From: Chthoniobacterales bacterium
Lineage (GTDB): Bacteria; Verrucomicrobiota; Verrucomicrobiia; Chthoniobacterales; UBA10450
DNA length: 64,000 bases
NCBI GenBank assembly: GCA_051005695.1
Contig: JBPCJC010000046.1
Location: 106,772 to 170,771 of the forward strand
Direction: 5' to 3'
Position numbers and translations under genes: made by a program. The stretch's first letter is position 1, and the number at the start of each line of letters is the position of its first letter. The notes beneath the pieces were generated by a model that saw only the letters and a list, made by a program, of their open reading frames with translations, ran no database searches and was not told the DNA's origin. Shown in pieces: positions 14,480 through 39,025 of the stretch.

Positions 14480-14480
14480 G

Positions 14481-17639: not shown

Positions 17640-17658
17640 ATTGAAAAACGGAGCGACA

Positions 17659-21545: not shown

Positions 21546-22780
21546 CGCCGCCGCTCTACATCGCGGTGCGTTTTCTGTTGCACCGAAAGCGCGCGTTTTT
21601 TCTCAGCCTTGCGGGCGTCGTTTTTGGCGTCGCCATTTTCATCTGCACGCAAGCGCAGACCGCGGGGTTCCAGAAAAATTTCGTGGATTCAAATCTCGGG
21701 AGCAACGGCGGCCTCATCCTGAGCGAGCGCATCCAGCCGCCCGTCACCGGACTCCCGGTTTCACCGAGAATTTCCAACACCAGCGCATCGCATCGCCGTT
21801 ACCTGGAAGGCATTGACGATCCGAGCGGGATCATGCGCGTGAGCCGGCAATTTGCCGATGTCGCGGCTTGCACGCCGGTCCTGCGCGGGTTGCTCAGCGC
21901 GCGCGCCGGGTTCGAAAGCGCGACCGTGCGTTTGTTCGGAATCGATCCCGATACGCACGCGCTCACGACTAATCTGCGCCAACAAATCTCCGACGGGAGC
22001 TTCGACGATTTCCGGAACAATCCGCGCTCGCTCATTGTCGGTTCGCGACTCGCGGAAGCGCTCGGCGTGAAGGCCGGCGACACGCTGCAATTGCTCTCGC
22101 CCGGCGGCGAGTATCAGCGTTTCAGCGTGGCGGCGCTCGCGCGCAGCGGGATCGGCTCGGAGGACGCGAGCCGCATTTATAGCCATCGCAAAATTGCGCA
22201 GAGACTTCTGCTCAAGCCTTACAGCGCATCGATGATCATTTATAAATTGCGCAATCCGGAACGCGCGCCGGCCCTGGCGCAGCGCTTCGAGACGCTCTTC
22301 CACTACAAAGCCGAGAGCTGGCAGGCGCGCGAGCAAGGCAATCTGCAACTTTTCCAGACATTGCGCATCTCGGCCGCGGTCACGGTGTCGCTCATCATCC
22401 TGCTCGCGGGCTTTGGAATTTTTAACGTCCTCACCATGACCGTGCTCTCGAAATTAAAGGAGATCGCGATCCTGCGCTCGATCGGTTACCGCCGCGGCGA
22501 CATCAGCGGAATTTTTCTTTGGCAAGGCGGGATGATCGCGGTCGCGGGGGCGATCATTGGCTGTGGTGTGGGTGCGCTCATGACCCTGGGCGTCTCGCAC
22601 ATTCCGATCAAAGTGCGCGGCCTGCTCTACGCGAATTATTTTCTCGTGAGCTGGGATTGGCGGCACTACGTCCTCGCCATCGTGCTCGCGATCATCGCGG
22701 TTTTCATCGCCAGCTACGTGCCGGCGCGGCGCGCGGGTTTGCTCTCGCCGGTCGTTACGCTGCGCGGCTCGAGTGGGTAA
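21542..22780 (+). CDS. ABC transporter permease, FtsX/MacB/LolCE family (no fused ATPase).
   Basis: GTGA overlap with the adaptor gene. Large periplasmic domain between TM1 and TM2. C-terminal FtsX signature: LRSIGYRRGDISGIFLWQGGMIAVAGAIIG. Confidence 0.85.
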   Translation: MTPPLYIAVRFLLHRKRAFFLSLAGVVFGVAIFICTQAQTAGFQKNFVDSNLGSNGGLILSERIQPPVTGLPVSPRISNTSASHRRYLEGIDDPSGIMRVSRQFADVAACTPVLRGLLSARAGFESATVRLFGIDPDTHALTTNLRQQISDGSFDDFRNNPRSLIVGSRLAEALGVKAGDTLQLLSPGGEYQRFSVAALARSGIGSEDASRIYSHRKIAQRLLLKPYSASMIIYKLRNPERAPALAQRFETLFHYKAESWQAREQGNLQLFQTLRISAAVTVSLIILLAGFGIFNVLTMTVLSKLKEIAILRSIGYRRGDISGIFLWQGGMIAVAGAIIGCGVGALMTLGVSHIPIKVRGLLYANYFLVSWDWRHYVLAIVLAIIAVFIASYVPARRAGLLSPVVTLRGSSG

Positions 22781-23819
22781 AATCGAGCGGACGAATTTGG
22801 ATCGTCCAGAGCGCACGCGCGACATGCACCAGCGCGGTGGCCGCTTCCCACCACGCAATGACGACAAAAGCGCTCGCGGGCGTGCCGAGCAGCAACCCGA
22901 TCGCGAAAATCCAGATGTAGATATTGCTGCGACCGCCTAACAAACGGATTTTTGCGTCGAGCGGTGTCAGCTCGTCGATCAAGCGTCCGTAGCGTCGGAT
23001 GACGCTGAGTTTCGCCAACCCGTCGACACCTTCTGCGACGAGCAGCAAAACCAAATACCACCACGCGGTCGGCAGCAGTCCGGTGTGCCAGAGGGAAAAC
23101 GCCAGTGCGAGCGCCCAGGCGAGTTCGTAGAAAGTGTCGAACCAATGCTCGAGCTTTCCGGCTTCCGAGGTCTCGACTTTCACGCGCGCTTGTTTGCCAT
23201 CGAGGCCGTCGAGCACGCCGACGGCAAGAGCGCAGAGCGTTCCCGTCCCCAAATAACCGGCGGCAAAAAACAAAGCCGCGGCCCAGGCGACGACATTGCA
23301 GACGGCCGTGAGTTGATTCGGCGTGATCGAAGTTCGGCAAAGATGGCTAACGAAAAACGTCTCGATCGGCCCGTGCACGATTGCCGGCAAATCCTGTGAG
23401 CCTTTCTGCGCGGCATCGAGAATGCGGCGCTCGGCTTTCTTGCATTCGTCGGCTGTCGTCGGCGCTGGAAGGCAAAGTATCGGCAAATGGCGCCGCATGT
23501 TTAACGAATACGTCGGCAGCTCGGCGATTTCGATCACCCGCGCGTCCGCTTCCGGTTCGCCGCCATGCGAGACAAACGCGCCCGTAAGCCGCCCGTGGTC
23601 TAACAAGACGCACGGCTCCATTTGCGCGAGCAGCAACTCCAACAGCCGCGCGTCCCAAACGACATCGTCCGGCAAAGTCAGATGCAACTCCGACGATTCC
23701 GGCGCGATCTCGTGCGTCGCCTCGACCCGCGCGAGCGTCCGCAACAACCGCTCGCGCAACGTGATCCCGCACAGCTCGACCGACGCACCCGGTTCCCGGT
23801 TCAAAATGACAACCTGCAT
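22755..23819 (-). CDS. CDP-alcohol phosphatidyltransferase with a ~150-aa cytosolic N-terminal domain (a possibly degenerate nucleotidyltransferase-like fold).
   Basis: CDP-OH_P_transf motif: DGLDGKQARVKVETSEAGKLEHWFDTFYE (D-G-x2-A-R...G-x3-D-x3-D pattern). Multiple TM helices. The N-terminus MQVVILNREPGASVELCGITLRERLL resembles the start of NTP-transferases but lacks the GxGxR loop. Confidence 0.75.
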   Translation of the reverse strand: MQVVILNREPGASVELCGITLRERLLRTLARVEATHEIAPESSELHLTLPDDVVWDARLLELLLAQMEPCVLLDHGRLTGAFVSHGGEPEADARVIEIAELPTYSLNMRRHLPILCLPAPTTADECKKAERRILDAAQKGSQDLPAIVHGPIETFFVSHLCRTSITPNQLTAVCNVVAWAAALFFAAGYLGTGTLCALAVGVLDGLDGKQARVKVETSEAGKLEHWFDTFYELAWALALAFSLWHTGLLPTAWWYLVLLLVAEGVDGLAKLSVIRRYGRLIDELTPLDAKIRLLGGRSNIYIWIFAIGLLLGTPASAFVVIAWWEAATALVHVARALWTIQIRPLDFTHSSRAA

Positions 23820-23863
23820 AGAGCGGTGGAAATTACCTCGAAGCTTCCGATGTTACGCAGCCG

Positions 23864-24823
23864 ATGTCTGTTGCCGAATTAACTGCTCCCCCGCTCGCAG
23901 AGACGACCGCGGAAGACCGCGTCCCGGGATTATCGTTTCGTTTGCGATACAGCCCGTTGCTAGCACAGATGGTCATCGTGCGCCGCTGCAATCTCGCCTG
24001 CGCCTATTGCAGCGAGTTCGACAAAACGAGCGAGCCGGTCCCGTTCGCCACCCTCGACGCGCAACTGCGGAAGCTGAAAAATCTCGGCACCTTTGGCATC
24101 TCGCTCACCGGCGGCGAACCGACATTGCATCCGGATTTGCCACGTCTCGTTAGGCGCTGCCGCGAGCTGAAATTTTTCCGCACCGGCATGATCACGAACG
24201 GTTTCTTTTTGAAACCCGAGCTCATCCAGCAATTGAACGAGGCCGGGCTGCAGGAGATGCAAATCTCGATCGACGGCGTGAAAGGCAACGAGACCACGCA
24301 GAAGGTGCTGGATAATTTGCGCAAGCGTCTCGTCGGGCTACGCGATCACGCGAAGTTCAACGTCACCGTCAGCGGCGTCATCGGCGCCTGTCCGCCGGAG
24401 GAGGCGGAGGAAGTGGTCGCGTTCGCCACCGAGATGGGCTTCACGCCGCGCGTTCTGCTGGTCCACGATGAGCACGGACAATCAAAGTTGAGCGAGCGCG
24501 AACTGCAGGTCTACGAACGCATCGTAAAGAAGCTACCGAAAAGCTGGATGGATTTTTCCGGCTATCGCAAGCGCCTCGTGCGCGACGGCGTTTCGCCTTT
24601 CAAATGTCGCTCCGGCAGCCGCTATCTTTACATCGACGAATTCGGACGCGTGAACTGGTGCGCGCAGACGCGCGAGGTCTGGTCGAAGCCGCTCCTGCAA
24701 TACACCCGCGCCGATTTGCGCGAGCAATTCCACACCCCGAAATCGTGCAACCCCACCTGCACCATCGGCTGCTCGCGTTCCGCCAGCCAGCTCGACAAAT
24801 GGCGCGCGCAGGGCGTTGCTTGA
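23864..24823 (+). CDS. Radical SAM enzyme with a Cys-rich C-terminal (SPASM/twitch-like) region.
   Basis: CNLACAYCSEF gives the CxxxCxxC cluster. SAM-binding stretch: ISLTGGEPTLHPDL. C-terminal cysteines: FKCRSG...NWCAQ...KSCNPTCTIGC. Confidence 0.85.
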   Translation: MSVAELTAPPLAETTAEDRVPGLSFRLRYSPLLAQMVIVRRCNLACAYCSEFDKTSEPVPFATLDAQLRKLKNLGTFGISLTGGEPTLHPDLPRLVRRCRELKFFRTGMITNGFFLKPELIQQLNEAGLQEMQISIDGVKGNETTQKVLDNLRKRLVGLRDHAKFNVTVSGVIGACPPEEAEEVVAFATEMGFTPRVLLVHDEHGQSKLSERELQVYERIVKKLPKSWMDFSGYRKRLVRDGVSPFKCRSGSRYLYIDEFGRVNWCAQTREVWSKPLLQYTRADLREQFHTPKSCNPTCTIGCSRSASQLDKWRAQGVA

Positions 24824-24840
24824 TCACTCGTTAGGCCATC

Positions 24841-25548
24841 GTGGACATGCCCTCCGACATCTGGTTGAGCTGTCGCAACCTCGAACGCTATCTCGGCGAG
24901 GAAGATTCGCGCGTGCATGCATTGCGCGGGGTCTCGCTCGATCTCGAGCCCGGCAGCGTCCACGCCATCGTCGGCCCGTCCGGTTGCGGCAAGAGCACGC
25001 TCCTTTATCTGCTCGGCCTGCTCGATCGTCCGGACGCCGGCACGCTCACGATCGATCACCAACTCGTTTCCGGATTACCCGACAACGAACTGTCGGCCAA
25101 ACGCAATCAACTCCTCGGTTTCATCTTTCAATTCCACTTCCTCCTCGAGGATTTCACCGCGGCGGAGAACGTCATGATCCCGATGCGCCGGCTTGGGCAA
25201 TTGAGCGAGCTGGAGATGTCCGCGCGGGCGGCGGAATTACTCGACGCGGTCGGTCTGGGCGAAAAGCGCGCCCGTCCCAGCCGTCATTTATCCGGCGGCG
25301 AACAACAACGCGTCGCCATCGCGCGCGCGCTCGCGAACGATCCGCGCGTCATCCTCGCCGACGAACCGACCGGGAATCTCGACAGCGCCAACTCCCAACG
25401 CGCCTTCGAGTTGCTGCAAAAAATCGTCCGCGAGGGCAACAAGGCGCTCCTCCTCGTGACCCACAATCCCGCGATCGCTCAGGTTTGTGATTGGATTCAC
25501 GAGATGCAGGACGGCCTCATCGTCTCGACGCACGCGCGCGCCGCATGA
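24841..25548 (+). CDS. ABC transporter ATP-binding protein, LolD/MacB-ATPase type.
   Basis: Walker A: GPSGCGKSTLL. Q-loop: IFQFHFLL. Signature: LSGGEQQRVAIARAL. Walker B: ILADEPTGNLD. Confidence 0.9.
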   Translation: MDMPSDIWLSCRNLERYLGEEDSRVHALRGVSLDLEPGSVHAIVGPSGCGKSTLLYLLGLLDRPDAGTLTIDHQLVSGLPDNELSAKRNQLLGFIFQFHFLLEDFTAAENVMIPMRRLGQLSELEMSARAAELLDAVGLGEKRARPSRHLSGGEQQRVAIARALANDPRVILADEPTGNLDSANSQRAFELLQKIVREGNKALLLVTHNPAIAQVCDWIHEMQDGLIVSTHARAA

Positions 25549-26768
25549 GCGCGGCTGCGGGCGCGGCGCGGTTCGCAGCACTTCGATTCTGTCGCTGGCC
25601 GCGTTGGTTCCCCCGCGATGTGCTCTTGCCTTTCGCCGTGACCCGGTTGCTCCTCGCCGCAGTCGCGTGGATCGGATTTCAAATTTTTCCGTTCTCGGCG
25701 AAGCCCGACAAATGGGAGATCGGTCGCACGGGCATGATCGTGCCGACCAACGGCGGGGCATTTTCCGGCAGCCATCGTTTCGTCAACATGTGGTCACGCT
25801 GGGACAGCGAGTGGTATCTCTCGGTCGCGCAGCGCGGCTACTCGTTCAATCCGGGTCGCGATTCGAACGTGGCTTTCTTTCCGCTCTATCCAATCGCGGT
25901 CCGCGCCTTGCACGCGGTCATGCCTTGGGCGAGCGACGCCGGCTGGCTCTGCGTCGGCATTCTTCTTTCGAATCTCTCACTCGTCGTGGCGTTGGCCTAC
26001 CTGCATCGGCTGGTTCGACTCGATTATGACGAAGCGCTGGCTACGCGCGCGGTGCTCTATCTCTGTCTCTTTCCGACGACGTTCTTTCTTTCCGCGTTTT
26101 ACTCGGAGTCACTCTTCCTCGCCGTCGCCGTGAGCGCTTTTTATTATGCGCGGCGCAGTCGCTGGATACTCGCCGGTTGTCTCGCTGGCGTGGCTACGCT
26201 GGGTCGGCCGCCGGGCGGGTTGGTCGGCGTCGCCCTGGCGCTGGAATATTTCGCGCAGAAGAAATTTCGCTGGCGCGCGATCAGGGCGGATTGCCTCGCA
26301 CTGGCGCTTGTGCCGCTGGCATTGTTCGGGCATCTCGCGTTTTTGCGCTGGCGTTTCGGCGATTGGTCCGTTCTCTCGAAAGCGGAATCGGTTGCCCACT
26401 GGTCGCGCAAATTCACTCCCCCCTGGATCACGCTGGGCACCTTCTTTCAGCGGCCACATCTTGGCGCGGGCACCCACGATTCCTATCTCGATTTGCTCGC
26501 GACTCTCGGCCTCCTCGGCCTAACGACTTATTCCCTGTTCCGACTGCGCCTGAGTTACGCCTTCTACGCCAGCATCACCCTTCTCTTTCTCCTCTCCTGG
26601 CGGTCTCTGAACTCGATGCCGCGCTTCGCGGTGGCGATTTTTCCGATCATGATCGCGCTCGCCCTGCTCGGACGGAGCGTGATTTTTCATCGCGCCTACG
26701 TGGTCATTTCCGGCGGGATCGCACTCGGTTGCATGATCGCGTTTTCACACTGGGTTTGGCTCGGCTAG
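25545..26768 (+). CDS. Polytopic GT-C-type glycosyltransferase-like membrane protein (PIG-V / mannosyltransferase-like).
   Basis: ATGA overlap with the ABC ATPase stop. About 10 TM segments. The WSRWDSEWYLSVAQRGY motif is typical of PIG-V-like / DUF2029-type GT-C proteins. Family assignment is from memory only. Confidence 0.55.
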   Translation: MSAAAGAARFAALRFCRWPRWFPRDVLLPFAVTRLLLAAVAWIGFQIFPFSAKPDKWEIGRTGMIVPTNGGAFSGSHRFVNMWSRWDSEWYLSVAQRGYSFNPGRDSNVAFFPLYPIAVRALHAVMPWASDAGWLCVGILLSNLSLVVALAYLHRLVRLDYDEALATRAVLYLCLFPTTFFLSAFYSESLFLAVAVSAFYYARRSRWILAGCLAGVATLGRPPGGLVGVALALEYFAQKKFRWRAIRADCLALALVPLALFGHLAFLRWRFGDWSVLSKAESVAHWSRKFTPPWITLGTFFQRPHLGAGTHDSYLDLLATLGLLGLTTYSLFRLRLSYAFYASITLLFLLSWRSLNSMPRFAVAIFPIMIALALLGRSVIFHRAYVVISGGIALGCMIAFSHWVWLG

Positions 26769-28310
26769 AGCGCCCTGCTTCCGCCGCAGGAGATGATCGA
26801 GCACCTCGCGATCGCTGCGATCCAAACCAACGAAACGCCACGCCGCGAAATACCCGGCGAGATAAACCACCCCAGCCGCGATCTGCCAAAGCGGCGCGCG
26901 GGAAACGAAACACACCGCGAGCGCGAGTGGAGTCGCGAGCAGAGCCGCCAGCCATGGCTTGAGCAATGCGCGCCATGGCCAATGCCAATCGAGCATGCGC
27001 GGAATCTGCCAGCCGCGCAGCAAGCCCTGGATAGTGTACGGAATTAACATTCCGAGCGCCGCGCCCAAGGGGCCGAGCGCGGGAATCAAAATGAGGTTGC
27101 AGCCAATGGCAGCGACGAAAGCGATGAGCGCGTTGCCGAGATTCATTCGTGGCCGCTCGACCATCAGAATCGTCTCGCCTAAACCGACGAACGCATTCAA
27201 GCCGCAGGCCGCTCCGACGATCGCCAGCCACACTCCACCGCGCGCAAATTCGGCGCCGAAAATTCTCATGAGCGCGCCCCCGCTCAAAGCGAGCACCGCC
27301 AGCGCGGGCAAAAGAAGCGCGAGCATCCAGCGCGCGAGATAACCGTAGCTCGCTTCGGCGGCCCGCATCTGACCGGAGGCGATTTGCCGCGCCACCATCG
27401 GCATGAAAATCGGCATGAACGCCTGGCTCACCTTGCGGAGTCCGCTCGCGATCTCCACGGCCGCCGCATAAATCCCGAGCGTTATCAACGTCACCCCCGG
27501 CGCCCGGCCGACGAACCAGCCGAGCATGATCAAGTCGATTTGCATCACGCCCACATTGAGCAAATCGGACAACGCCAAGGGCAGCGACGCGTGCACTAAT
27601 CGGCGCGTGAGATCGTCGCTCTCGCGCACGATCGGCGCCCGCGGTGTGGTCACAAACAAGCGCCTAACGAGTAGAAGCGCGACTACGCCGGAAGCGAGCG
27701 CGCTGGTGAGCGCGGCGATTTCCGGGGCCAACTCGCGCAAGCCCAAGGCGAACGCGACCAGCAACGCCGCCGCCGTCCCCAACGTGTCGGTGAGACCGCG
27801 CGAAAAAATGTCGTGGTGCATCACCGCCATCCCGCGCGACAAGCCATTGCTCACGCGGTAGAGCGCCACGCCCGGAAGCGCGAGCATCATCACCGCCGTG
27901 GCCCGCGCCAACTCGGGCCGCAAACCGCAACGCGCGCCGAAATTCCAAACCACAAAAAAACCCGCGAGCGCCAGCGCCGTTCCACTCACGAGGCAAAGCG
28001 CGACCGCGGTCCGCATCACTCGGCAACTGTTCGCACGATCTCCCACCGCTTCCGCTTTGGCGACGAACGCGATCGTCGTGTAGTCGAGGCCAAGCGTGGC
28101 AAACTTGCTCAACAAATCCATCGCCGCCCAGGCGAGACCGAAAATCCCCAGCGCCGCGCTCCCGAGCAAACGCGCCACCAAGAGCATGAAAATGCCGCGC
28201 AGCGTCGAGGCCAGAAACGCCAGCGTGTTCACGAAGGCCCCGCGCGCGAGGGTCGCGCCTAACGAGCCATGGTCCGGCACGCTCTCAGGCTCGCGCGGCC
28301 GCGGCGTCAT
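26745..28310 (-). CDS. Polysaccharide/oligosaccharide flippase (MOP superfamily, Wzx/MurJ-like).
   Basis: 521 aa with about 14 hydrophobic segments throughout. Overlaps the upstream GT4 gene by 26 nt, suggesting an operon. Confidence 0.65.
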   Translation of the reverse strand: MTPRPREPESVPDHGSLGATLARGAFVNTLAFLASTLRGIFMLLVARLLGSAALGIFGLAWAAMDLLSKFATLGLDYTTIAFVAKAEAVGDRANSCRVMRTAVALCLVSGTALALAGFFVVWNFGARCGLRPELARATAVMMLALPGVALYRVSNGLSRGMAVMHHDIFSRGLTDTLGTAAALLVAFALGLRELAPEIAALTSALASGVVALLLVRRLFVTTPRAPIVRESDDLTRRLVHASLPLALSDLLNVGVMQIDLIMLGWFVGRAPGVTLITLGIYAAAVEIASGLRKVSQAFMPIFMPMVARQIASGQMRAAEASYGYLARWMLALLLPALAVLALSGGALMRIFGAEFARGGVWLAIVGAACGLNAFVGLGETILMVERPRMNLGNALIAFVAAIGCNLILIPALGPLGAALGMLIPYTIQGLLRGWQIPRMLDWHWPWRALLKPWLAALLATPLALAVCFVSRAPLWQIAAGVVYLAGYFAAWRFVGLDRSDREVLDHLLRRKQGALAEPNPV

Positions 28311-29475: not shown

Positions 29476-29557
29476 AACGAGAGGGACAAGTCTAGACCAT
29501 CATCGCGCCGTCGCTCTCCCGTTTCTCGAAAATTTGCCGAAAGGAAAACCGCCGCTT
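29476..29557. promoter_or_regulatory. Divergent intergenic region between the GT4/flippase operon (-) and the SDR/NTP-transferase operon (+).
   Basis: 82 bp between divergent starts. The purine-rich aaggaaaa at 29541..29548 lies 10 nt upstream of the proposed TTG start at 29558. Confidence 0.4.
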
Positions 29558-30361: not shown

Positions 30362-31098
30362 TGACCACCGAGGCGGTGATTCTGATGGCGGGCGCCGGCT
30401 CGCGCCTGGGCCACGCGGACGGGGCAATCGCCAAACCACTCGTGCAGATCGCGGGCCGACCGCTGATTTCCTACACGCTGGAGGCGCTGGCGCGCATCGG
30501 CGTGACCACCGTGCACGCGATCATGGGCGAGCAAAGCGCCCGCCTAACGAGTACTGTCGCCGAGCTCCTGCCGGCGACGATGAGCTTGCACGCGATTACG
30601 AACCCGGCCTGGCAAAAACAGAACGGCGTTTCCGTGCTCTGCGCGGAGCCGCACGTGCGCGCGCCTTTTTTTCTCGCGATGGGCGATCATCTTTTCGACG
30701 CGGCGATTTTCGAAAATCTTTTGCGCACTGCGGATCCGCGGGATTTGAATCTGGCGATCGACCGCAAGATCTCGTCCATCTTCGATCTCGACGACGCGAT
30801 GAAAGTGCAAACGCACGCCGAACGCGTCACCGGCATCGGCAAAACGCTCGCAGCTTACGATGCCATCGACACTGGCCTCTTTCTTTGCCCTAACGAGTTG
30901 TTCGATTACCTGCGCCGCGCGCAACGCGCGGGCGATTGCAGCCTGGCCGACGGCGTCCGGCTCATGGCGGCGGACGGAAAAGTGCGCGCGTTCGACATCG
31001 GCGACGCCTGGTGGCAGGACGTGGATACACCGGAGATGTACGCGTACGCGGCCGCGCATTTTGCCGGCGTGGCCTCGCCTCAAAGCGCGCGCCGATAA
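30361..31098 (+). CDS. Nucleotidyltransferase (NTP_transferase fold; sugar- or polyol-phosphate cytidylyl/uridylyltransferase-like), copy 1.
   Basis: MTTEAVILMAGAGSRLG...KPLVQIAGRPLI is the G-x-G-x-R activation loop. The start overlaps the SDR stop (cTGATG). Confidence 0.8.
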   Translation: MTTEAVILMAGAGSRLGHADGAIAKPLVQIAGRPLISYTLEALARIGVTTVHAIMGEQSARLTSTVAELLPATMSLHAITNPAWQKQNGVSVLCAEPHVRAPFFLAMGDHLFDAAIFENLLRTADPRDLNLAIDRKISSIFDLDDAMKVQTHAERVTGIGKTLAAYDAIDTGLFLCPNELFDYLRRAQRAGDCSLADGVRLMAADGKVRAFDIGDAWWQDVDTPEMYAYAAAHFAGVASPQSARR

Positions 31099-32210: not shown

Positions 32211-32298
32211 CTCCGCTTCATGTCAGCGGGCCGCGACGCGGGCGCAAGACGGAAATGATTTTGCACTCCCCGCCAAACTGCGTAACAGCAACGGCCTC

Positions 32299-33165
32299 GT
32301 GACGCCGCCCCCAGGCCCATCTCTCCCCGCGCGCGGGCTCGCCTTTCAAGCCCGCGAAATTGAGGAGCTCGCGGACGTGTATTTTTTTCGTCCGCTCGGC
32401 ATTCTCGTGGCTCGACCCGCGGCGACGCTCGGGTTGACGCCGACGCAGATCACGTTCGCGAGCATGTTGGTCGGCGTGCTTGGCGCCGCACTGCTTTATG
32501 ATCCGCGGCTCGGGCTGCCCGCTTTCGTTCTCCTCATCGCTTACAGCATTCTCGATTCGGCCGATGGCCAACTGGCGCGTCTCACCGGCCAGGTGACGGA
32601 ACTCGGGCGGGTGCTCGACGGCGTGATTGGCTACGTGGTTTACACCGCGCTTTACCTCGCGCTCACCGCGGGATTGCTGCACCGCGGCGCGTCGGGCACG
32701 ATCGTTGTTTGGATGTTGCTCGCGGTGATTTCGAATATCGCGCAGGCGCAGATGTACGATTACCACCGTCACCACTACGTCAGCATTGTCGTCCGCGGGA
32801 CTATCGTGCGCGATGATCCGGCAAAAATTTCATCGCCTCTGATCGCGTGGATTTACCGAGGTTATCTGGCTCTGCAGCGCGGACTCAATGGCTTGCACGG
32901 AGAAGTGGAAAAACGGATCGGCGCGCGCGCCCATGACGGTGTCGTGCCAGCCCCAGATCAGGCGCGCTATCGCGCCTGTTTTTACCGACCGGTGCGCGGC
33001 TGGAATTTGCTCGGCGATAACACGCGCTTCTACGCCATCGGGCTGCTCGCGCTCATTCATCGGCTCGATTTGTTTTTTTCTTTCATCGTTGTGCCGATGA
33101 ACCTGGCTCTGGTTGCGCTCTGGTTTTGGCAACGCCAGGCCGATCGCAGATTTTTGCGCTCATGA
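32299..33165 (+). CDS. CDP-alcohol phosphatidyltransferase, copy 2 (start uncertain; GTG at 32299 proposed).
   Basis: DSADGQLARLTGQVTELGRVLDGVIGYVVY matches D-G-x2-A-R-x8-G-x3-D-x3-D. Six or more TM segments. The track start at 32137 would overlap the divergent GNAT gene. Confidence 0.8.
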   Translation: MTPPPGPSLPARGLAFQAREIEELADVYFFRPLGILVARPAATLGLTPTQITFASMLVGVLGAALLYDPRLGLPAFVLLIAYSILDSADGQLARLTGQVTELGRVLDGVIGYVVYTALYLALTAGLLHRGASGTIVVWMLLAVISNIAQAQMYDYHRHHYVSIVVRGTIVRDDPAKISSPLIAWIYRGYLALQRGLNGLHGEVEKRIGARAHDGVVPAPDQARYRACFYRPVRGWNLLGDNTRFYAIGLLALIHRLDLFFSFIVVPMNLALVALWFWQRQADRRFLRS

Positions 33166-33842
33166 TCCGCGCGCTTCTTTTCGACATGGGCGGGACGCTC
33201 GATGGCGACGGCGGGCATTGGCTGGAACGCTTTCTCGCTCTCTATCGCCGCTTCGGCGTGGAGCTGCCGCGTGAGATTCTGCGGGACGCCTTCGACGAAG
33301 CCGAGCGCCGCTCGGCGACGGATGAAACGATCGCGTCGGCGAATTTTTTGCAGATGATCGAGCTGCATGTGCAATGGCAGTTCACCCGCCTTGGCCTAAC
33401 GAATGCAGCGCTCGCGCGTCGCCTGGTCGACGGCTTCGTCGGTCCCGTGAACGAGGCGGTCATCGCCAACGTCGATCTGCTCGCGCGGCTGGCGGCGCGC
33501 GGTTTCGCGCTCGGCGTGGTCTCGAACGGCTGCGGTAACGTCGATAAACTCTGCGACGATTTCGGTTACGCGCCCTTTCTTTCCCTGGTGGTGGATTCGC
33601 GACGCGTGGGTATTTTCAAACCCGATCCCGCCATCTTTCAGTATGCCGCCGAGAAAATGGGCCACGCTCCCGAAGTCACCATGATGATCGGCGATTCTTT
33701 CGAGCGCGACATTGTGCCGGCCAAAAAGATCGGCATGCAAACCGCCTGGCTGGCCGGCAACGCGACGACCAGTTGCTCCGATCCGGCGCTGGTCGACTTG
33801 CGGCTCACCCGGCTTCCCGATTTAGCCGACGCGTTGCCATGA
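33162..33842 (+). CDS. HAD-superfamily hydrolase/phosphatase.
   Basis: Motif I: LLFDMGGTL. Motif II: VVSNG. Motif III/IV: MIGDSFERDI. ATGA overlap with the upstream gene. Confidence 0.85.
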   Translation: MIRALLFDMGGTLDGDGGHWLERFLALYRRFGVELPREILRDAFDEAERRSATDETIASANFLQMIELHVQWQFTRLGLTNAALARRLVDGFVGPVNEAVIANVDLLARLAARGFALGVVSNGCGNVDKLCDDFGYAPFLSLVVDSRRVGIFKPDPAIFQYAAEKMGHAPEVTMMIGDSFERDIVPAKKIGMQTAWLAGNATTSCSDPALVDLRLTRLPDLADALP

Positions 33843-34552
33843 AAGCAGGCATCCTCGCGGCAGGCCGGGGCGAACGTCTGCGCACCTCGGCAAATCCGCT
33901 CAAGCCATTGATCACGGTGCACGGTCGCACTTTGATCGAGCACGTCTTGCACTCGTTAGGCGAAGCCGGGGCCAGCGAGGTTGTGGTGCTAATCAACGGA
34001 GACTCGCGCGCGGTGCGCGCCCACGTGGAGACGCGGACCTGGCCATTTGCGCTGCGCTGGGTCGTCGAAACGACACCGTCCTCGATGCATACATTTTTGC
34101 GTCTCGTCGAAATCCTGTCCGCTGACGGCGATGCCGGACCGTTCCTGCTTTCCACCGTCGATACAGTCGCCGGCGCGCAGACCTACGCGCATTTTGCGAG
34201 TGCAGCTTGGCCGCGCAAATCGGCGCATGTGACGCTGGCGCTCACCTCACCGGGCGACGACGAAAAACCTTTGCTCGTCCGAGTCGACGAAGACTCACGG
34301 ATCGTCGCGCTCGGTCCCGACGCGGCGCCTTCGGCCTTAGCGACCGCGGGTATTTACGCGGTGCGCGCATCGGTTCTCCGCGAAGCCGAGGCCGCGCGGA
34401 ACGAGGGCGTCGACGCCTTGCGCATTTTTCTGGGCCGACTGCTGACGCGCGGGTATCGCCTGGACGGAATTCCGATCGCGCGATCGATCGATGTCGATCA
34501 CCCCGCCGACATCGCCACGGCGGAAGCATTTCTGCGGAGCACGCATTCGTGA
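33839..34552 (+). CDS. Nucleotidyltransferase (NTP_transferase fold), copy 2.
   Basis: MKAGILAAGRGERLR...KPLITVHGRTLIEHVL. ATGA overlap with the HAD gene. Confidence 0.8.
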   Translation: MKAGILAAGRGERLRTSANPLKPLITVHGRTLIEHVLHSLGEAGASEVVVLINGDSRAVRAHVETRTWPFALRWVVETTPSSMHTFLRLVEILSADGDAGPFLLSTVDTVAGAQTYAHFASAAWPRKSAHVTLALTSPGDDEKPLLVRVDEDSRIVALGPDAAPSALATAGIYAVRASVLREAEAARNEGVDALRIFLGRLLTRGYRLDGIPIARSIDVDHPADIATAEAFLRSTHS

Positions 34553-35355
34553 AACGTCTCCTCGGTTTGTATCGCGAAAAGCAATTTTCGCCCGGACGCC
34601 ACGCGTCCAACGACGTCCTGATTCTCGAGCAGGTCGCCGAGCGCTTGCGCGCACGCGATTGTTTGGTCGAACTCGTCGCGCCCTCGGAAATCGGCAAGCG
34701 TCGGCACGAACACGCGTTCGTGGTCTCGATGTGCCAGGGGAAACCGGCTCTCGAAAAGTTGCTCGAATGGGAAAAGAACGGCGCGCGGATCATCAATCGG
34801 CCGCAGGCGGCTTTGAACACGCATCGCGATCGGCTGCCGGAAATTCTGCGCGCGGCCGGGCTGGCGTTTCCGCGCACGGAGTTGATCACGACGCGCGGGC
34901 CGGCGGAGCATGCACACGATCTGGACGGCGGACTTTGGCTGAAGCGGGGAGACGTGCACGCGGCCGTGCCCGCGGATGTACAATGGATCGATTCGCCCGC
35001 GCGCTTGCAAAACGGTTTGGAAGATTTCGCGCGCCGGCAAATTGAACGCGCCGTGCTGCAGGAACATCGCGCCGGCGATGAAATTAAATTCTACGGCGTG
35101 GGCGCGGATTTTTTTCATTGGTTTTACTCGAAGGAGAATCGCGCGCACCCGCCGGATCCCGCTGAGCTGCATGCGTTCGCGGGCCAAGCTGCCGCGGCTG
35201 CCGGTCTCGATATTTTTGGCGGCGATGTCATCGTCGCGCCCGACGGCAAACTGACCTTGATCGATCTCAACGATTGGCCATCATTCGCGCCCTGTCGCGA
35301 GCCGGCCTCCCGTGCGATAGCTGATCTCCTGATCGCTCGTCTCCATGCTGACTAA
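34549..35355 (+). CDS. ATP-grasp fold protein (ligase/kinase-like).
   Basis: GTGA overlap with the upstream gene. LWLKRGDVHA...KFYGV...IFGGDVIVAPDGKLTLIDLNDWPSF is typical of the ATP-grasp C-terminal Mg/ATP site. Confidence 0.6.
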   Translation: MKRLLGLYREKQFSPGRHASNDVLILEQVAERLRARDCLVELVAPSEIGKRRHEHAFVVSMCQGKPALEKLLEWEKNGARIINRPQAALNTHRDRLPEILRAAGLAFPRTELITTRGPAEHAHDLDGGLWLKRGDVHAAVPADVQWIDSPARLQNGLEDFARRQIERAVLQEHRAGDEIKFYGVGADFFHWFYSKENRAHPPDPAELHAFAGQAAAAAGLDIFGGDVIVAPDGKLTLIDLNDWPSFAPCREPASRAIADLLIARLHAD

Positions 35356-36661
35356 ACCGCGCCCGCAAACCGCTTCCCGCACTAAAGCTGTGTTCGAAGC
35401 CGAGCAAGAATTCATCGCGCCCGGCGTGCAGACGATTGCGCTGCTTTCGGAGCTGGCGATCGCGCGCGGTGACGGTTGCACGCTGACCGATCTCGATGGC
35501 CGCACCTATCTCGATTTGAATGCCGGGGTTTCCGTGGCGAGTCTCGGCCACGCGCATCCGCGCTACATCGCGGCGTTGACCAGGCAACTACAGGCGGTCT
35601 CCGTCGGCAGTTTCGCCACGGAAGCGCGCGCTGCACTCGTTAGGCTGATTGCCGAACTCGCCCCCGGCGAGCTGAAGCGCACACAGCTTTTCAGCGGCGG
35701 CGCAGAGGCAGTGGAGGCGGCGATTCGTCTGGCACGCTCGTACACGAAGCGCACCGACATCGTCGGTTTCACCGGGGGCTTTCACGGCAAGACGGCCGGC
35801 GTTTTGCCGCTCTCGGAAGTCGATTGGAAAATGCTCGTCGGTCCGCTGCCGACTGGTCATCACCTCTCGCCGTACGCGGATCCGACACGCTTCGAAGGTT
35901 CCGCGGAAGAATGCCGGCAGGCGGCGATCGAGAAATTGCGCCAGGTAATCGAAGAGGAAATTGCGGGGCGGCCCGCGGCGATCTTGATCGAGCCGATTCA
36001 AGGAACGGCCGGCAACATCGTTCCCCCGCCGGGATTCCTGCGTGATGTCCACGAGGTGGCGCGGGAATATGGCGCGCTTTTGATCGCGGATGAAATGATC
36101 ACGGGGTTCGGACGCACCGGGCGCATGTTTGGCTGCAACGCGGACGGTGTGGTCCCCGACATCATGACGCTGGGTAAAGGGATGGCGTCCGGTTATCCGG
36201 TGAGCGCGCTCGTTTCCACGGACGAGATTGTTTCGGCGAAACCATTTTCGCTTCCGAGTGCGTCGTCCTCCAGCTACGGCGGAAATCCCCTCGCTTCAGC
36301 CGCGGCCCTGGTCACAATTGAAACGATCGTGGCCGATCGCTTAGTGGAAAATTCTGCGAGCGTCGGCAGCGCCTTCCGGCGCGGGCTGGAGAAACTCGCG
36401 GGCGGACACCGTTCGCTCGCCCACATCCGCGGCGAAGGTTTGCTCATCGGCTTCGATCTGGTGGAGGATCAAGCAACGAAGCGGCTGCTGCCGAAAAACA
36501 GATGCGTTGATTTTTTCAAGAGCTGTCTGGCCGAGGGCTTAATTCTCATGGGTTACACGCCACGCGTGCGCGTGCATCCGCCGCTCATCCTAACGAGTGC
36601 TGAGGTGGAGGTTGCACTGTCCGCGCTGGGCCGTGTCTTGACTGCGTTGGAAGCGGAATAG
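35345..36661 (+). CDS. Class-III PLP-dependent aminotransferase.
   Basis: FSGGAEAVEAAIRLAR. DEMITGFGRTGRMFG. PLP-lysine context: TLGKGMASGYPVSA. Confidence 0.9.
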   Translation: MLTKPRPQTASRTKAVFEAEQEFIAPGVQTIALLSELAIARGDGCTLTDLDGRTYLDLNAGVSVASLGHAHPRYIAALTRQLQAVSVGSFATEARAALVRLIAELAPGELKRTQLFSGGAEAVEAAIRLARSYTKRTDIVGFTGGFHGKTAGVLPLSEVDWKMLVGPLPTGHHLSPYADPTRFEGSAEECRQAAIEKLRQVIEEEIAGRPAAILIEPIQGTAGNIVPPPGFLRDVHEVAREYGALLIADEMITGFGRTGRMFGCNADGVVPDIMTLGKGMASGYPVSALVSTDEIVSAKPFSLPSASSSSYGGNPLASAAALVTIETIVADRLVENSASVGSAFRRGLEKLAGGHRSLAHIRGEGLLIGFDLVEDQATKRLLPKNRCVDFFKSCLAEGLILMGYTPRVRVHPPLILTSAEVEVALSALGRVLTALEAE

Positions 36662-36665
36662 CAGC

Positions 36666-37649
36666 GTGGTGCGCGGCGCGATTATCGGTTTCGGGCAGGT
36701 CGCGGAGCACGGCCATCTGCCGGGCTACGCGCAAACATCGGAAGTGCAGATCGTCGCGGTGGTCGATCCCGCGGAAGCGCGCCGCGCCCGTGCGCAGGAG
36801 TTGATTCCAGGGGTCGCGACCGTTTCCACCCTCGCAGAGTTGTCCGCGCGGCTGATTGATTTCGTGGATATTTGCACGCCCCCGGCGATGCATGGCGAGG
36901 CCATCCTGACGGCTTTGGAACACGGATGGGACGTGCTTTGCGAAAAACCGTTGCTGCTCGATTTGGCGGAAATGGAACAGGTGCGCGAGGCCGCAGCGAC
37001 GTCCGGCCGTGCGGTCGTGCCGGTGCACAATTGGAAGTACGCACTAGTCGTTAGGCGCGCGACCGCGGCGCTCCGAGCGGGCGCGATCGGCGAGCTACGG
37101 CAGATCGAAATCGAAACGATTCGCACAGAAGATTGCGCGGTGGCGGACCCGGCGCGGCCGAATTGGCGGCGCGACCCGGCGATCGCGGGGGGCGGGATTC
37201 TCACGGATCACGGCTGGCACGCGATCTATCTCGCGCTGCATTGGTTCGGCGATGTGCCAACGGAAGTGAGCGCTATTCTGCGACGCGCTAGTCCTGCGAC
37301 CGTCGAAAACGAAGCCCGACTAACTCTCGGGTTTCCAAATGGCGAAGCCCGAATTTTCCTGACTTGGACGGGAGCGCACCGCCGAAACGCGATTCGTTTC
37401 GTCGGTGAAAAAGCGCGAATGACGATCGATGACGACGTGCTCGAACTCGGAGACGAATCAATCAAGTTTGTCCCCGCGCTCTCGGCCGGCTCGCATCACC
37501 CGGATTGGTTCGCCGCCATGCTACCGGACGTGCTCGCCAGTTTTCGTGAACCCGCCCAGGCGCGCGCCGCCTTCGAGGAAGCGGGTCGTTGTCTCGCGAT
37601 TCTGCGCGCCGCCTACGAGACCGCCAGCTGGGAAACCACGACTCGTTAG
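36666..37649 (+). CDS. Gfo/Idh/MocA-family NAD(P)-dependent oxidoreductase.
   Basis: The N-terminus VVRGAIIGFGQVAEHGHLPGY fits a Rossmann fold. EKPL motif: VLCEKPLLLDLAEM. The TAG stop lies inside a CTCGTTAGGC motif copy. Confidence 0.85.
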   Translation: MVRGAIIGFGQVAEHGHLPGYAQTSEVQIVAVVDPAEARRARAQELIPGVATVSTLAELSARLIDFVDICTPPAMHGEAILTALEHGWDVLCEKPLLLDLAEMEQVREAAATSGRAVVPVHNWKYALVVRRATAALRAGAIGELRQIEIETIRTEDCAVADPARPNWRRDPAIAGGGILTDHGWHAIYLALHWFGDVPTEVSAILRRASPATVENEARLTLGFPNGEARIFLTWTGAHRRNAIRFVGEKARMTIDDDVLELGDESIKFVPALSAGSHHPDWFAAMLPDVLASFREPAQARAAFEEAGRCLAILRAAYETASWETTTR

Positions 37650-37665
37650 GCTACACTCGTTAGGC
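37642..37665 (+). repeat. Two direct copies of CTCGTTAGGC, 14 bp apart, at a convergent gene junction.
   Basis: Sequence actcgttaggctacactcgttaggcg. Copy 1 (37642..37651) contains both the TAG stop of the + gene (37647..37649) and the complement of the TAA stop of the - gene (37646..37648). Confidence 0.95.
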
Positions 37666-39025
37666 GGGCGGAGTTTTGTTCGCGCACGAACGTATCCGAG
37701 AGAATGTTCAGAGCTTCGTCCAAGTCGGCGCGTGTATGATTGGCCGTGACGCAGGCGCGGAAGCAAATGCGGTCCTGCGGGACGGCGGGATAATCCACCG
37801 GCGCGACAAACAAACCGCGCTGCCGTAATTCGTGACCGAGCCGGTACATCCGTCCGCGATCACCAACGATCAGCGGCATGATGTAGGTGGATGAGGCGCC
37901 AGTATCGATGCCGAGGCCGTGCAGTTGCATCCGAAAGTAGTCGGCGTTTTCCCACAGACGCGTGCGCAATTGCGGCTCGCGCTGCGCGATCTCGAGGGCC
38001 TTCAAAATTGCCCCGACAACCACGGTCGGTAGCGCGCAGGAGTAAGTGTAGGAGTGTGCGTAATAACGCAGGTAATCGAGCGTCTCCTTCGGCCCAGCGA
38101 CGAAACCACCGAGCGCGCCGAATGCCTTCGAGAACGTTCCGTAAATCATCGGGATGCGATTTTCGACTGCGCAATGCTCGGCCGCGCCACGTCCGTGTTC
38201 GCCACAGGCGAGGATGGAGTGCGCTTCATCGATGAAGACGCTGGCCTCATGCGCTTCGGCCACGGAAAGCAGACGCTCGAGATCGGCGAAGTCGCCGTCC
38301 ATCGAATAGATTCCTTCCACGATCACGAGTTGCCGTTTGCCCTTACGCTTTCGCAACGCTTCGTCGAGCGAGGCGGGATCGTTGTGCTCGAAACGCCCCA
38401 GCCGCGAGCGCGACAGGACCGCGCCGTCGCGCAGGCTCAGATGGGAACGATCATCCATGATGGCGACGTCGCTTTTGCGGAGTAATCCCGAGATCACCCC
38501 GAGCGCGCCGCCGAAGCCGCTATTGAAAAGCATCGCATCTTCGCGCCCGAGGAAATCTGCGACCGCGCGTTCGAGTTTGCGATGGAGATCGGTCATGCCG
38601 GAAAGCATCGGCGAACCGCACGCGCCCATGCCGTACTTGTTGAGCGCGGCGGCGGCAGCGGCGACCACTTCCGGGTGATTGGCCAGGCCAAGATAATTGT
38701 AGGAGCAAAGATTGACCACCGACCGCGATTTGCCGTCGTAGTTGAGCGCGGTGCGGGCGTCGGCGCTGTCGAGCAGTTCGGGCTCATAGAGTGTGGCTTC
38801 CCACGCGCCGCCTTTTCGCCATTCGGTGAAGGCGGCCGGCGGGATCAGTGGATCCTTACTATCGCCCACCACGAAGTCCCCCAGGCTAAGTCCGGCGTTG
38901 AATTCGGATTCGCGCTCGGGGATTGGCTCGCCGTTCATCAGGACGAGTTTGGATGGAAGTGGGGACGAACTCAACGCCATTGCTGCCCTAACCTGCCATC
39001 TTTCTGCGATTTTAAAAATCGCCAC
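37646..39025 (-). CDS. Alpha-oxoamine synthase family PLP enzyme (serine palmitoyltransferase / KBL / BioF-like) with an N-terminal extension.
   Basis: NLCSYNYLGLANHPEV. DEAHSILACGEHGRG. PLP-lysine motif: GTFSKAFGALGGFVAG. About 460 aa, longer than typical BioF. Alternative start at the Met encoded at 38980. Confidence 0.8.
   Translation of the reverse strand: MAIFKIAERWQVRAAMALSSSPLPSKLVLMNGEPIPERESEFNAGLSLGDFVVGDSKDPLIPPAAFTEWRKGGAWEATLYEPELLDSADARTALNYDGKSRSVVNLCSYNYLGLANHPEVVAAAAAALNKYGMGACGSPMLSGMTDLHRKLERAVADFLGREDAMLFNSGFGGALGVISGLLRKSDVAIMDDRSHLSLRDGAVLSRSRLGRFEHNDPASLDEALRKRKGKRQLVIVEGIYSMDGDFADLERLLSVAEAHEASVFIDEAHSILACGEHGRGAAEHCAVENRIPMIYGTFSKAFGALGGFVAGPKETLDYLRYYAHSYTYSCALPTVVVGAILKALEIAQREPQLRTRLWENADYFRMQLHGLGIDTGASSTYIMPLIVGDRGRMYRLGHELRQRGLFVAPVDYPAVPQDRICFRACVTANHTRADLDEALNILSDTFVREQNSARLTSVA

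Follow-up and report, generated by a model that had tools for sequence, protein, structure and literature searches.

What product would be assembled by a locus that sets two CDP-alcohol phosphotransferases and two nucleotidyltransferases beside an alpha-oxoamine synthase (AOS), an N-acyltransferase, a flippase and the parts of an export pump? The question is raised by positions 22755-39025 of a 64,000-nucleotide stretch of DNA from a Chthoniobacterales bacterium (contig JBPCJC010000046.1), the whole of which is called the window here. An earlier note, made from the letters alone, had read seventeen consecutive genes in this region as a candidate pathway for an unusual polar lipid. Using Pfam matches above the gathering score and NCBIfam scores judged against curated cutoffs, we count 16 closely packed genes; every domain named beforehand is present at the coordinates given for it, the ATP-grasp protein being recognized through AlphaFold and Foldseek, and one gene had gone unlisted, a LolD-like ABC ATPase at 24841-25548 (+). 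The region is a genuine gene cluster. The window has a GC content of ~0.61, and the nearest relatives of its proteins are labelled Chthoniobacterales or Verrucomicrobiota. From domain identities, synteny, cross-phylum co-occurrence and gene fusions, all observed directly, we infer a product and several enzyme roles: the locus probably directs the synthesis, decoration and export of a lipid built on ceramide, whose phosphate head groups would derive from inositol, possibly in amino form.

The gene arrangement is not due to chance, because the same genes recur in near-identical order, at 46-85% amino-acid identity, in Chthoniobacterales genomes (loci L002, L004, L007, L009, L010, L012, L014, L017, L019, L086 and L087, found by exact-protein look-ups and a genome scan). 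The conserved core comprises both CDP-alcohol phosphotransferases (CPT1 and CPT2), the ABC ATPase, the flippase, a classical short-chain dehydrogenase/reductase (SDR), both nucleotidyltransferases (NTP1 and NTP2), a GNAT-fold acyltransferase, a HAD phosphatase, an ATP-grasp protein, an aminotransferase, a Gfo/Idh/MocA dehydrogenase (Gfo) and the AOS. The GT-C glycosyltransferase of the window and, for the most part, its GT4 glycosyltransferase lie outside this core. The co-conservation on which the earlier note had staked its reading was found in relatives, and in part it reaches across phyla.

Three genes point to a ceramide core: the AOS (37646-39025 on the minus strand, or 37646-38938 from the probable start at Met30; Pfam Aminotran_1_2, 186.9 bits), a 376-residue double-GNAT N-acyltransferase (31080-32210, -; Acetyltransf_1, 47.6 bits) and the classical SDR (29462-30361, +; adh_short, 127.7 bits). 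By homology and context they are candidates for long-chain-base synthase, ceramide synthase and 3-keto reductase, respectively. The best PDB match of the AOS is Sphingobacterium serine palmitoyltransferase (Spt; 3a2b, 259 bits versus 243 for Kbl), and its lysine motif, GTFSK, is common to Bacteroidota Spt; its N-terminal extension is clade-specific. An AOS that proved to be BioF within a biotin operon would have spoken against a lipid pathway, but the gene stands in neither a biotin nor a threonine context and sits with the GNAT gene in 8/8 Chthoniobacterales-like loci. More broadly, among 60 loci of at least 15 kb, out of 80 returned by a genome scan with the ATP-grasp family profile and used for all module counts below, every AOS-bearing locus also has the GNAT gene (13/13).

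Gene context is most informative in two cultured Sphingobacteriia. Parapedobacter luteus DSM 22899 (L083, 1708-15675) and Dyadobacter (L069) carry a single operon with the order AOS/Spt, GNAT, CerR-like epimerase-family reductase, myo-inositol-phosphate synthase (MIPS), DUF5686, NTP2, ATP-grasp, CPT2, LPG_synthase_TM, HAD, PfkB, DUF4833 and FA_hydroxylase, apparently a complete inositol-phosphoceramide operon and one well suited to experimental study. The Parapedobacter AOS scores 743 bits against the curated Spt model NF047600, above the cutoff of 640, and the window AOS and GNAT are 37-38% identical to its adjacent AOS-GNAT pair. Over its full length, the window GNAT is likewise 37-38% identical to the proteins encoded between AOS/Spt and the CerR-like gene in both operons, and it is ~40% identical to a Gemmatimonadota GNAT; no NCBIfam model matches either the window or the Parapedobacter GNAT. 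Spt, GNAT and CerR-like genes are also joined to the head-group module in Gemmatimonadota (L072, L085). As for the reductase, the window SDR scores 163.1 bits (E = 8e-48; cutoff 400) against KdsR, the 3-ketodihydrosphingosine reductase model NF049977, which is the second best of its 206 SDR family matches. The classical SDR and the CerR-like reductase of the epimerase type stand in for one another, Chthoniobacterales having the SDR form, and the AOS gene is thus clustered with GNAT plus one or the other reductase gene.

Further sphingolipid-type genes adjoin the AOS in relatives: FA_hydroxylase in L004 and L009, FA_desaturase in L002, and in L087 both a hydroxylase and a desaturase with the sphingolipid Lipid_DES domain. 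The fatty-acid desaturase and hydroxylase of these relatives, their PMT_2 GT-C and a third CDP-alcohol transferase were sought in the window and are absent from it. In the pathway we propose, the AOS would condense an acyl thioester with an amino acid, probably serine; the 3-keto long-chain base so formed would be N-acylated by the double-GNAT enzyme, and the SDR would reduce the 3-keto group of the base or of 3-keto-ceramide; in relatives, the desaturase or hydroxylase may further modify the lipid core. Spt-like genes have previously been counted in 22 Verrucomicrobiota metagenome-assembled genomes (PMC11334938).

The head group is suggested to be inositol-derived because NTP1 resembles IPCT, CPT1 and CPT2 match transferases that use inositol phosphate, and MIPS genes occur in L086 and near 32 of the 60 modules. 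NTP1 (30361-31098, +; Pfam NTP_transf_3 and NTP_transferase) aligns with the IPCT half of NF041135 at 118.7 bits, versus 65 for the next family, and with the IPCT structures 2xme, 4mnd and 4jd0 at 71-74 bits, versus 35 for the next PDB entry; the 580-bit cutoff of NF041135 is that of a bifunctional model and is out of reach for a single domain. A comparison with IPCT/DIPPS had been drawn beforehand, and it holds specifically for NTP1, which is IPCT-like and a candidate CDP-inositol synthase. CPT1 (22755-23819, -) joins a cytoplasmic N-terminal domain of ~150 residues to a CDP-OH_P_transf domain (PF01066, 35.2 bits; cutoff 22). Its best PDB match, AF2299 (4o6m), aligns over residues 14-246 and so includes the N-terminal domain; IPCT/DIPPS (4mnd) comes next. 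The idea that this N-terminal domain is a degenerate cytidylyltransferase was rejected, since BLASTP against NTP1 gave E = 0.18 and the PDB search aligned the N-terminal domain of AF2299 instead. Nor do the two CDP-alcohol transferases look like housekeeping PgsA or PssA copies, an outcome that would have undercut the proposal: their best matches are archaetidylinositol-phosphate (AIP) synthase, PIP synthase, DIPPS and AF2299.

A radical SAM gene (23864-24823, +; Pfam Radical_SAM, 72.6 bits) always adjoins CPT1, with orthologues 70-96% identical in Chthoniobacterales and five additional cysteines that are invariant in the alignment. Foldseek places viperin at the top of its matches, with SkfB and MoaA, which are generic nucleotide-binding or SPASM relatives only; the viperin model NF038283 gives 54.8 bits (cutoff 180), and MoaA and Tes ~69 bits. 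In L086, whose radical SAM protein is 86% and CPT1 64% identical to those of the window, a divergent MIPS gene lies beside a block of two TolC genes, adaptor, FtsX permease, CPT1 and radical SAM. The same relative has three genes inserted between its radical SAM and ABC ATPase genes (L086 11241-17412), splitting an otherwise conserved block; two encode large Kelch/beta-propeller proteins, one with a dockerin domain, and the third a 364-residue protein without a Pfam match. Along this first route, NTP1 would make CDP-inositol and CPT1 would transfer phospho-inositol, with the radical SAM enzyme modifying, at a guess, a nucleotide-linked or lipid intermediate.

Since an IPCT-like NTP1, a DIPPS/AF2299-like CPT1 and a phosphatase constitute the exact toolkit for di-myo-inositol phosphate, we asked whether the CDP-alcohol modules might make soluble phosphodiester osmolytes, of the di-myo-inositol phosphate or glycero-phospho-inositol type, and stand beside lipid genes by accident. 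This is very unlikely. The hosts are soil mesophiles, AOS, GNAT, flippase and pump genes are closely interspersed with the CDP-alcohol modules, and flippase-like LPG_synthase_TM (MprF-type) genes occur in the module in 30/60 loci. Moreover, Bacteroidota that have this cluster alone produce inositol phosphoceramide (PMC9246714).

A second head-group route appears to be encoded by CPT2, HAD, NTP2, ATP-grasp, aminotransferase and Gfo, which form one six-gene operon with overlapping stops and starts (32299-37649, +). L087 keeps AOS, GNAT, SDR, NTP1, two CDP-alcohol transferases, the radical SAM gene and the pump, whereas the HAD-to-Gfo operon is missing within 10 kb; therefore, the two routes are separable. 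The operon opens with CPT2 (32299-33165, with a start at 32155 in the public gene call; PF01066, 44.4 bits, cutoff 22), whose best NCBIfam matches are AIP synthase and PIP synthase. There follow a HAD-IA phosphatase (33126-33842, or 33162-33842 in the public call; Pfam Hydrolase and HAD_2), the sugar-phosphate-type nucleotidyltransferase NTP2 (33839-34552; NTP_transf_3, 51.2 bits), the ATP-grasp-fold enzyme (34549-35355; no Pfam or NCBIfam match), a class-III, omega-type aminotransferase (35345-36661; Aminotran_3, 319 bits) and Gfo (36666-37649; GFO_IDH_MocA, PF01408, plus C-terminal domains). Gfo is a candidate inositol dehydrogenase by its match to the NCBIfam inositol 2-dehydrogenase model at 67.4 bits, level with xylose dehydrogenase at 67.8.

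These six genes are not peculiar to Chthoniobacterales. The ATP-grasp family alone comprises 1005 clusters at 50% identity, and the 80 scan loci fall in Verrucomicrobia, Elusimicrobia, Ignavibacteria, Gemmatimonadota, Acidobacteriota, Rokubacteria, Nitrospirae and many Bacteroidota, in each of which the module gene order is kept. Loci contain NTP2 in 55/60 cases, HAD in 57/60, a CDP-alcohol transferase in 49/60 and both aminotransferase and Gfo in 34/60; CPT2 homologues adjoin NTP2 and ATP-grasp in Bacteroidota and other phyla. The class-III aminotransferase is 45-59% identical across phyla and always adjoins the ATP-grasp and Gfo genes. MIPS lies within 10 kb of the module in 32/60 loci, 17/60 having MIPS without the aminotransferase in a Bacteroidota form that consists of MIPS, NTP2, ATP-grasp, CPT2, in some cases LPG_synthase_TM, and HAD. 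A further 15 belong to the 34 loci with both aminotransferase and Gfo, and for this reason we rejected the notion that the latter two replace MIPS. The window operon thus belongs to an inositol-linked module of wide distribution, which in this case carries an additional amination pair.

The AlphaFold model of the ATP-grasp protein (pLDDT 83.6) matches Ddl, RimK, LysX and ITPK1 with Foldseek probability 1.00 and TM scores of 0.6-0.74, and the family profile finds PsnB (1.3e-7), ITPK4 (2.7e-6) and RimK (1e-4) in the PDB, the ITPK4 match being the best single stretch and falling on the catalytic half of that enzyme. Natural fusions join the ATP-grasp domain to a nucleotidyltransferase in eight representative proteins, to HAD and nucleotidyltransferase domains together in P0196, and to a CDP-alcohol phosphotransferase in P0233, where ~200 residues without a domain match separate the two; the fusion proteins are P0142, P0146, P0180, P0185, P0192, P0196, P0210, P0233, P0255 and P0259. 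From the modelled fold, the protein would be either an ITPK-like kinase or a ligase, and we prefer a kinase because the profile matches ITPK4 and fusions with nucleotidyltransferase and HAD domains exist. In NDP-heptose synthesis (HldE, GmhB), kinase and nucleotidyltransferase are fused, and the order is kinase, HAD phosphatase, nucleotidyltransferase.

Any scheme for this route must say what purpose a phosphatase and an ATP-dependent enzyme both serve in a cluster already equipped with MIPS. We propose that HAD would first dephosphorylate inositol-3-phosphate, the MIPS product with its phosphate at D-3. Where the genes are present, Gfo and the class-III aminotransferase might then turn inositol, via an inosose, into an inosamine. 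The ATP-grasp enzyme, acting as a kinase, would re-phosphorylate the position to be linked, NTP2 would form the CDP-alcohol, and CPT2 would transfer the CDP-alcohol group to ceramide or diacylglycerol. In its fullest form, in which the cross-phylum module makes a CDP-activated amino-deoxy-inositol and places it on ceramide or diacylglycerol as a zwitterionic head group, phospho-inosamine, this remains a tentative suggestion that may well be wrong. We found no account in the literature of this locus, of Verrucomicrobial sphingolipids, of inosamine lipids or of a cluster of MIPS, ATP-grasp, aminotransferase and CDP-alcohol transferase genes.

Several observations weigh against an inositol-ceramide product. 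As the earlier note had stated, the window has no MIPS gene among its open reading frames of at least 120 residues, and MIPS lies within 10 kb in 0/8 of the Chthoniobacterales-like loci; no gene for an acyl carrier protein or acyl-ACP synthetase was seen at the locus. The AOS falls short of the Spt equivalogs NF047600, NF047599 and NF047603 (319.3/640, 304.8/500 and 240.4/670 bits against cutoff) and equally of BioF (341/426) and Kbl (321.6/460). It is 37% identical to Spt, 35% to Kbl and 34% to BioF, equidistant within an overall range of 34-38%, and its clade joins Spt in a neighbour-joining tree of 350 ungapped columns with a weak bootstrap of 62%. For the ATP-grasp model, Foldseek ranks ligases above ITPK1, which comes 48th, and the fold does not separate kinase from ligase. 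NTP2 is nearer to sugar-1-phosphate nucleotidyltransferases than to IPCT in both NCBIfam and the PDB (MurU, 4y7t), and inosose aminotransferases usually belong to the DegT family, class III being uncommon (neighbourhood counts in PMC10949010). The radical SAM model is of moderate confidence (AlphaFold2 pLDDT 67.6). Neither CDP-alcohol transferase has the full signature DxxDGxxAR...GxxxDxxxD: CPT1 deviates in the second half (DGLDGKQAR..G-KLE-H-WFD) and CPT2 lacks the fourth Asp (DSADGQLAR..G-RVL-D-GVI-G).

Some of these points can be placed. The AOS is ambiguous from its sequence, and here gene context, that of the Parapedobacter and Dyadobacter operon, is decisive for an Spt-like reading. The canonical fourth Asp is missing throughout the CPT2 family (L009, L019, L021, L073, L079, L080, L083), its position being shifted by one residue in Bacteroidota and taken by Asn in Ignavibacteria and by Tyr in Chthoniobacterales, which implies a non-canonical catalytic base; the extra CDP-alcohol transferase of relatives, CPT3, has the canonical signature.

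A further adverse point concerns the direction of CPT2. Its best curated matches, AIP and PIP synthase, take inositol phosphate as acceptor, which fits a scheme that arrives at the same lipid through CDP-ceramide. Here the ATP-grasp enzyme would phosphorylate ceramide, NTP2 would convert the product to CDP-ceramide, CPT2 would join inositol-3-phosphate to it, as PIP synthases do with CDP-diacylglycerol, and HAD would remove the terminal phosphate. A phosphatase step ends all characterized prokaryotic inositol-lipid routes (PMC9246714), an NDP-activated ceramide features in the proposal for Caulobacter CC_1161 (PMC11324152), and the P0233 fusion of ATP-grasp with a CDP-alcohol phosphotransferase is also in keeping with such a scheme. 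On the other hand, NTP2 is closest to soluble sugar-phosphate nucleotidyltransferases, and the HAD-nucleotidyltransferase-ATP-grasp fusion argues for successive soluble steps. The module is also common without AOS or GNAT nearby, where CDP-diacylglycerol made by CdsA would render the kinase and NTP2 redundant. We know of no ATP-grasp lipid kinase. Activation of ceramide rather than of the cyclitol is therefore rather unlikely in our estimation, and we retain a CDP-activated inositol or inosamine as the donor.

The wide distribution of the module bears equally on the lipid anchor. AOS and GNAT are lacking in most phyla (47/60 loci), the AOS lies outside the curated Spt families, and the PIG-V-like GT-C and GT4 recall the glycosylation of glycosylphosphatidylinositol (GPI) and phosphatidylinositol mannosides (PIM). 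One might accordingly picture an inositol glycolipid on a glycerolipid anchor, resembling PIM or GPI, or several such lipids together, with AOS, GNAT and SDR serving a non-classical N-acyl amino-ketone or amino-alcohol lipid. We consider this improbable, given that AOS, GNAT and reductase genes are strictly syntenic with head-group genes in 8/8 Chthoniobacterales-like loci, in Gemmatimonadota and in Sphingobacteriia, that the Lipid_DES and FA_hydroxylase neighbours are typical of sphingolipids, and that GT4 and GT-C are not conserved. A ceramide anchor remains our preferred assignment for the window.

The remaining genes suggest how the lipid would be decorated and exported. The MOP-family flippase (26745-28310, -; Polysacc_synt, 66.1 bits) is conserved at 46-66% identity in relatives. 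The GT-C enzyme (25491-26768, +, start likely near 25545; Mannosyl_trans2 52.5 and PMT_2 26.2 bits; PIG-V or GT76-like) has no orthologue in L002 or L004, where another GT-C, of the PMT_2 type, takes its place, and GT4 (28285-29475, -; Glycos_transf_1, 87.5 bits) has one only in L009, at 62% identity. Such variation between genomes suggests lineage-specific glycosylation. Around the lipid genes lie the parts of a tripartite exporter: a tandem pair of TolC-family outer-membrane channels (17641-19059 and 19056-20378, +; OEP, 169 bits; NCBIfam TolC family), a MacA/RND_mfp-type periplasmic adaptor (20388-21545, +; HlyD_D23 and HlyD_3; TIGR01730, 136 bits, cutoff 94.9), an FtsX/MacB-fold, LolCE-like permease (21542-22780, +; FtsX and MacB_PCD; lolCE 159 bits, below cutoff) and the LolD/DevA/MacB-type ATPase (ABC_tran 118.9 bits; LolD 233.8 and DevA 187 bits, both below cutoff). 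Synteny of pump and lipid genes extends to L086 and L087. In L086 the TolC proteins are 61% and 50% identical, the permease 78% and the adaptor 67% (55% in L087), and the ATPase is 74-84% identical in relatives. The flippase may carry the lipid across the inner membrane, GT4 and the GT-C enzyme would add sugars, and the LolD/FtsX/MacA/TolC pump would deliver the product to the outer membrane.

A flippase and two glycosyltransferases, with KdtA and an AsmA-like gene adjoining the cluster, might equally be expected of an ordinary envelope polysaccharide, O-antigen or lipopolysaccharide-core modification cluster. The earlier note had favoured lipid head-group chemistry over O-antigen or exopolysaccharide synthesis, and the gene content agrees: by Pfam, neither the 16 genes nor the flanks contain an initiating phosphoglycosyl transferase, a Wzy polymerase or a chain-length regulator. 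The glycosyltransferases number just two, neither of them conserved, and what is conserved is a core of AOS, GNAT, SDR, cytidylyltransferases and CDP-alcohol transferases. A polysaccharide cluster is hence the least probable of the explanations weighed here, and very improbable in itself.

Beyond the AOS, a minus-strand segment (40068-43536) encodes KdtA (Kdo transferase), an RsmD-like methyltransferase and an AsmA/DUF748/TamB-like protein. These are also found in L002, L019 and L087, and the lipid locus therefore lies consistently beside lipopolysaccharide and outer-membrane biogenesis genes. Between AOS and KdtA are a 219-residue open reading frame (39095-39754, -) with a signal peptide, a PEP-CTERM-like C-terminus (VPETGSTLALLAFG...RGRLKRGNA) and no Pfam or NCBIfam match, and a tRNA-Glu(TTC) gene (39936-40011, -); relatives have a PMT_2 GT-C, a sulfatase or small open reading frames at this position. 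Farther on, 4.5 kb from the AOS, is a YegS/BmrU-family lipid kinase (43593-44456, +; DAGK_cat and YegS_C; TIGR00147, 171.6 bits, above the cutoff of 118.65), which is syntenic in L019 only, at 83% identity. The Caulobacter ceramide kinase had carried a sphingosine/diacylglycerol kinase annotation (PMC11324152 S1 Text), so that the window enzyme could act on ceramide or a long-chain base; it is a possible member of the lipid system.

Upstream of the TolC genes, housekeeping genes for a DsbA-like thioredoxin/VKOR pair (10259-11412, +) and an AddB/AddA-type helicase-nuclease pair (11441-17639, +) form a block (10259-17639) that marks the left boundary of the locus, where L086 has MIPS. Two very large secreted-looking proteins of 945 and 1135 residues are encoded at 18-2855 and 6585-9992 (+), with weak fn3 and BNR matches only. 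An Rfam scan detected tRNA only, and a scan for promoters and terminators returned counts at chance level.

Work on how bacteria make sphingolipids and inositol lipids is at an early stage and confined to Caulobacter, Bacteroides and Sphingomonas, and the lipids of the abundant soil Verrucomicrobia are almost unknown. The locus provides a conserved gene set for a complex sphingolipid. Through it, the alternative inositol lipid genes that gut Bacteroidota carry gain an ATP-grasp partner, joined in many phyla by an amination pair. A sub-operon that recurs in so many phyla may explain an unsolved bacterial inositol-lipid pathway, for which we offer the step order phosphatase, (dehydrogenase, aminotransferase), kinase, cytidylyltransferase, transferase. 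Were the scheme correct, the kinase and HAD pair would explain how, in the alternative pathway of Bacteroidota, the phosphate left by MIPS is relocated ahead of activation with CTP, and the ATP-grasp protein would be the first bacterial cyclitol kinase of its fold. Amination would further imply that Verrucomicrobia, Gemmatimonadota, Acidobacteriota, Ignavibacteria, Nitrospirae, Rokubacteria and Elusimicrobia possess a class of membrane lipid not described before. A zwitterionic head group this new and this widespread would matter for the use of lipids as environmental biomarkers and for the biology of outer membranes that contain both lipopolysaccharide and sphingolipids.

How does the locus compare with systems already described? 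The closest in overall logic is Caulobacter crescentus CC_1152-CC_1168 (PMC11324152, PMC9393093), where a single region likewise encodes Spt, an N-acyltransferase (bCerS) and a reductase, along with a phosphoesterase, enzymes of the nucleotidyltransferase fold and one of the CDP-alcohol-transferase family, and also a flippase and an envelope transporter of its own; in both cases a lipid kinase of the DAGK type is encoded nearby. Its products are ceramide and ceramide (di)phosphoglycerate, so that the head group is phosphoglycerate rather than the inositol type proposed for the window. Furthermore, its reductase is the epimerase-type CerR instead of a classical SDR, its Spt uses a dedicated acyl carrier protein and acyl-ACP synthetase, neither of which was seen at the window locus, and its transporter is a set of Lpt paralogues in place of a MacAB/TolC-type pump. 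The Caulobacter locus also has no ATP-grasp, aminotransferase, Gfo dehydrogenase, radical SAM gene or link to MIPS.

The six-gene operon corresponds instead to the alternative inositol lipid cluster of Bacteroides vulgatus and Prevotella, in which an NTP transferase, a CDP-alcohol phosphatidyltransferase and a HAD hydrolase stand beside MIPS and whose role has been proposed and is untested (Heaver et al. 2022, PMC9246714). Homologues of the window CPT2, HAD and NTP2, 26-35% identical, occur in Parabacteroides, Prevotellaceae and Sphingobacterium loci in matching local order and beside MIPS; loci with the matching order are L039, L073, L079, L080 and L083. Both the cluster and the window module are tied to sphingolipid producers. 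Heaver et al. (PMC9246714) do not mention an ATP-grasp gene, which in the Bacteroidota loci we examined lies between the NTP and CDP-alcohol transferase genes. The window adds the class-III aminotransferase and Gfo; in contrast, MIPS adjoins the Bacteroidota cluster and is lacking in the window, and CPT2 of the window lineage is without even the shifted fourth Asp of its Bacteroidota counterpart.

The other partial parallels are narrower. Archaeal and thermophile IPCT/DIPPS and AF2299 resemble NTP1, which is closest to IPCT, and CPT1, which shares the architecture of a cytoplasmic domain followed by a CDP-OH-PT membrane domain. However, IPCT/DIPPS is a fusion that serves osmolyte synthesis, whereas in the window the activities lie on separate genes in a lipid context and score 118.7 and 37 bits against the curated model (cutoff 580). 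The analogy with mycobacterial PIM synthesis, one of three drawn in the earlier note, is the weakest of them, as GT4 and the window GT-C are unconserved in most relatives. For the amination pair, streptomycin biosynthesis has an aminocyclitol branch of the same enzyme types. In the proposed biosynthesis of hygromycin A, MIPS, a phosphatase, a PF01408 dehydrogenase and an aminotransferase lead to an inosamine (PMC10949010), and MIPS, HAD, GFO_IDH_MocA and an aminotransferase likewise co-occur in the cross-phylum module. There the inosamine is a building block for a secondary metabolite and the aminotransferase is usually DegT, as opposed to class III in the module; wiring of the module enzymes to a cytidylyltransferase and a CDP-alcohol transferase implies a membrane-lipid head group. 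The exporter, finally, matches MacAB-TolC and DevBCA-HgdD in its parts, with an FtsX/MacB-fold permease, a LolD/DevA-like ATPase, an adaptor and TolC channels. It scores below every curated equivalog cutoff for these systems, and, unlike in them, CPT1 and the radical SAM gene intervene between its ATPase and permease genes. The DevBCA exporter functions in glycolipid export.

The claim that no single described system has this full combination thus needs qualification: Caulobacter CC_1152-1168 shares the logic and the sub-operon is homologous to the Bacteroidota cluster, although the window does add further genes to both. Overall, the logic of the locus matches known bacterial sphingolipid loci and the hypothesized Bacteroidota inositol route, and it is not a new kind of system. 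What is new is a Verrucomicrobial version in which the AOS branches deeply and a single locus holds two CDP-alcohol routes; the conservation, in a module found in at least seven phyla, of the ATP-grasp enzyme and the amination pair; and a conserved radical SAM partner of a CDP-alcohol transferase, together with a MacAB/TolC-type pump.

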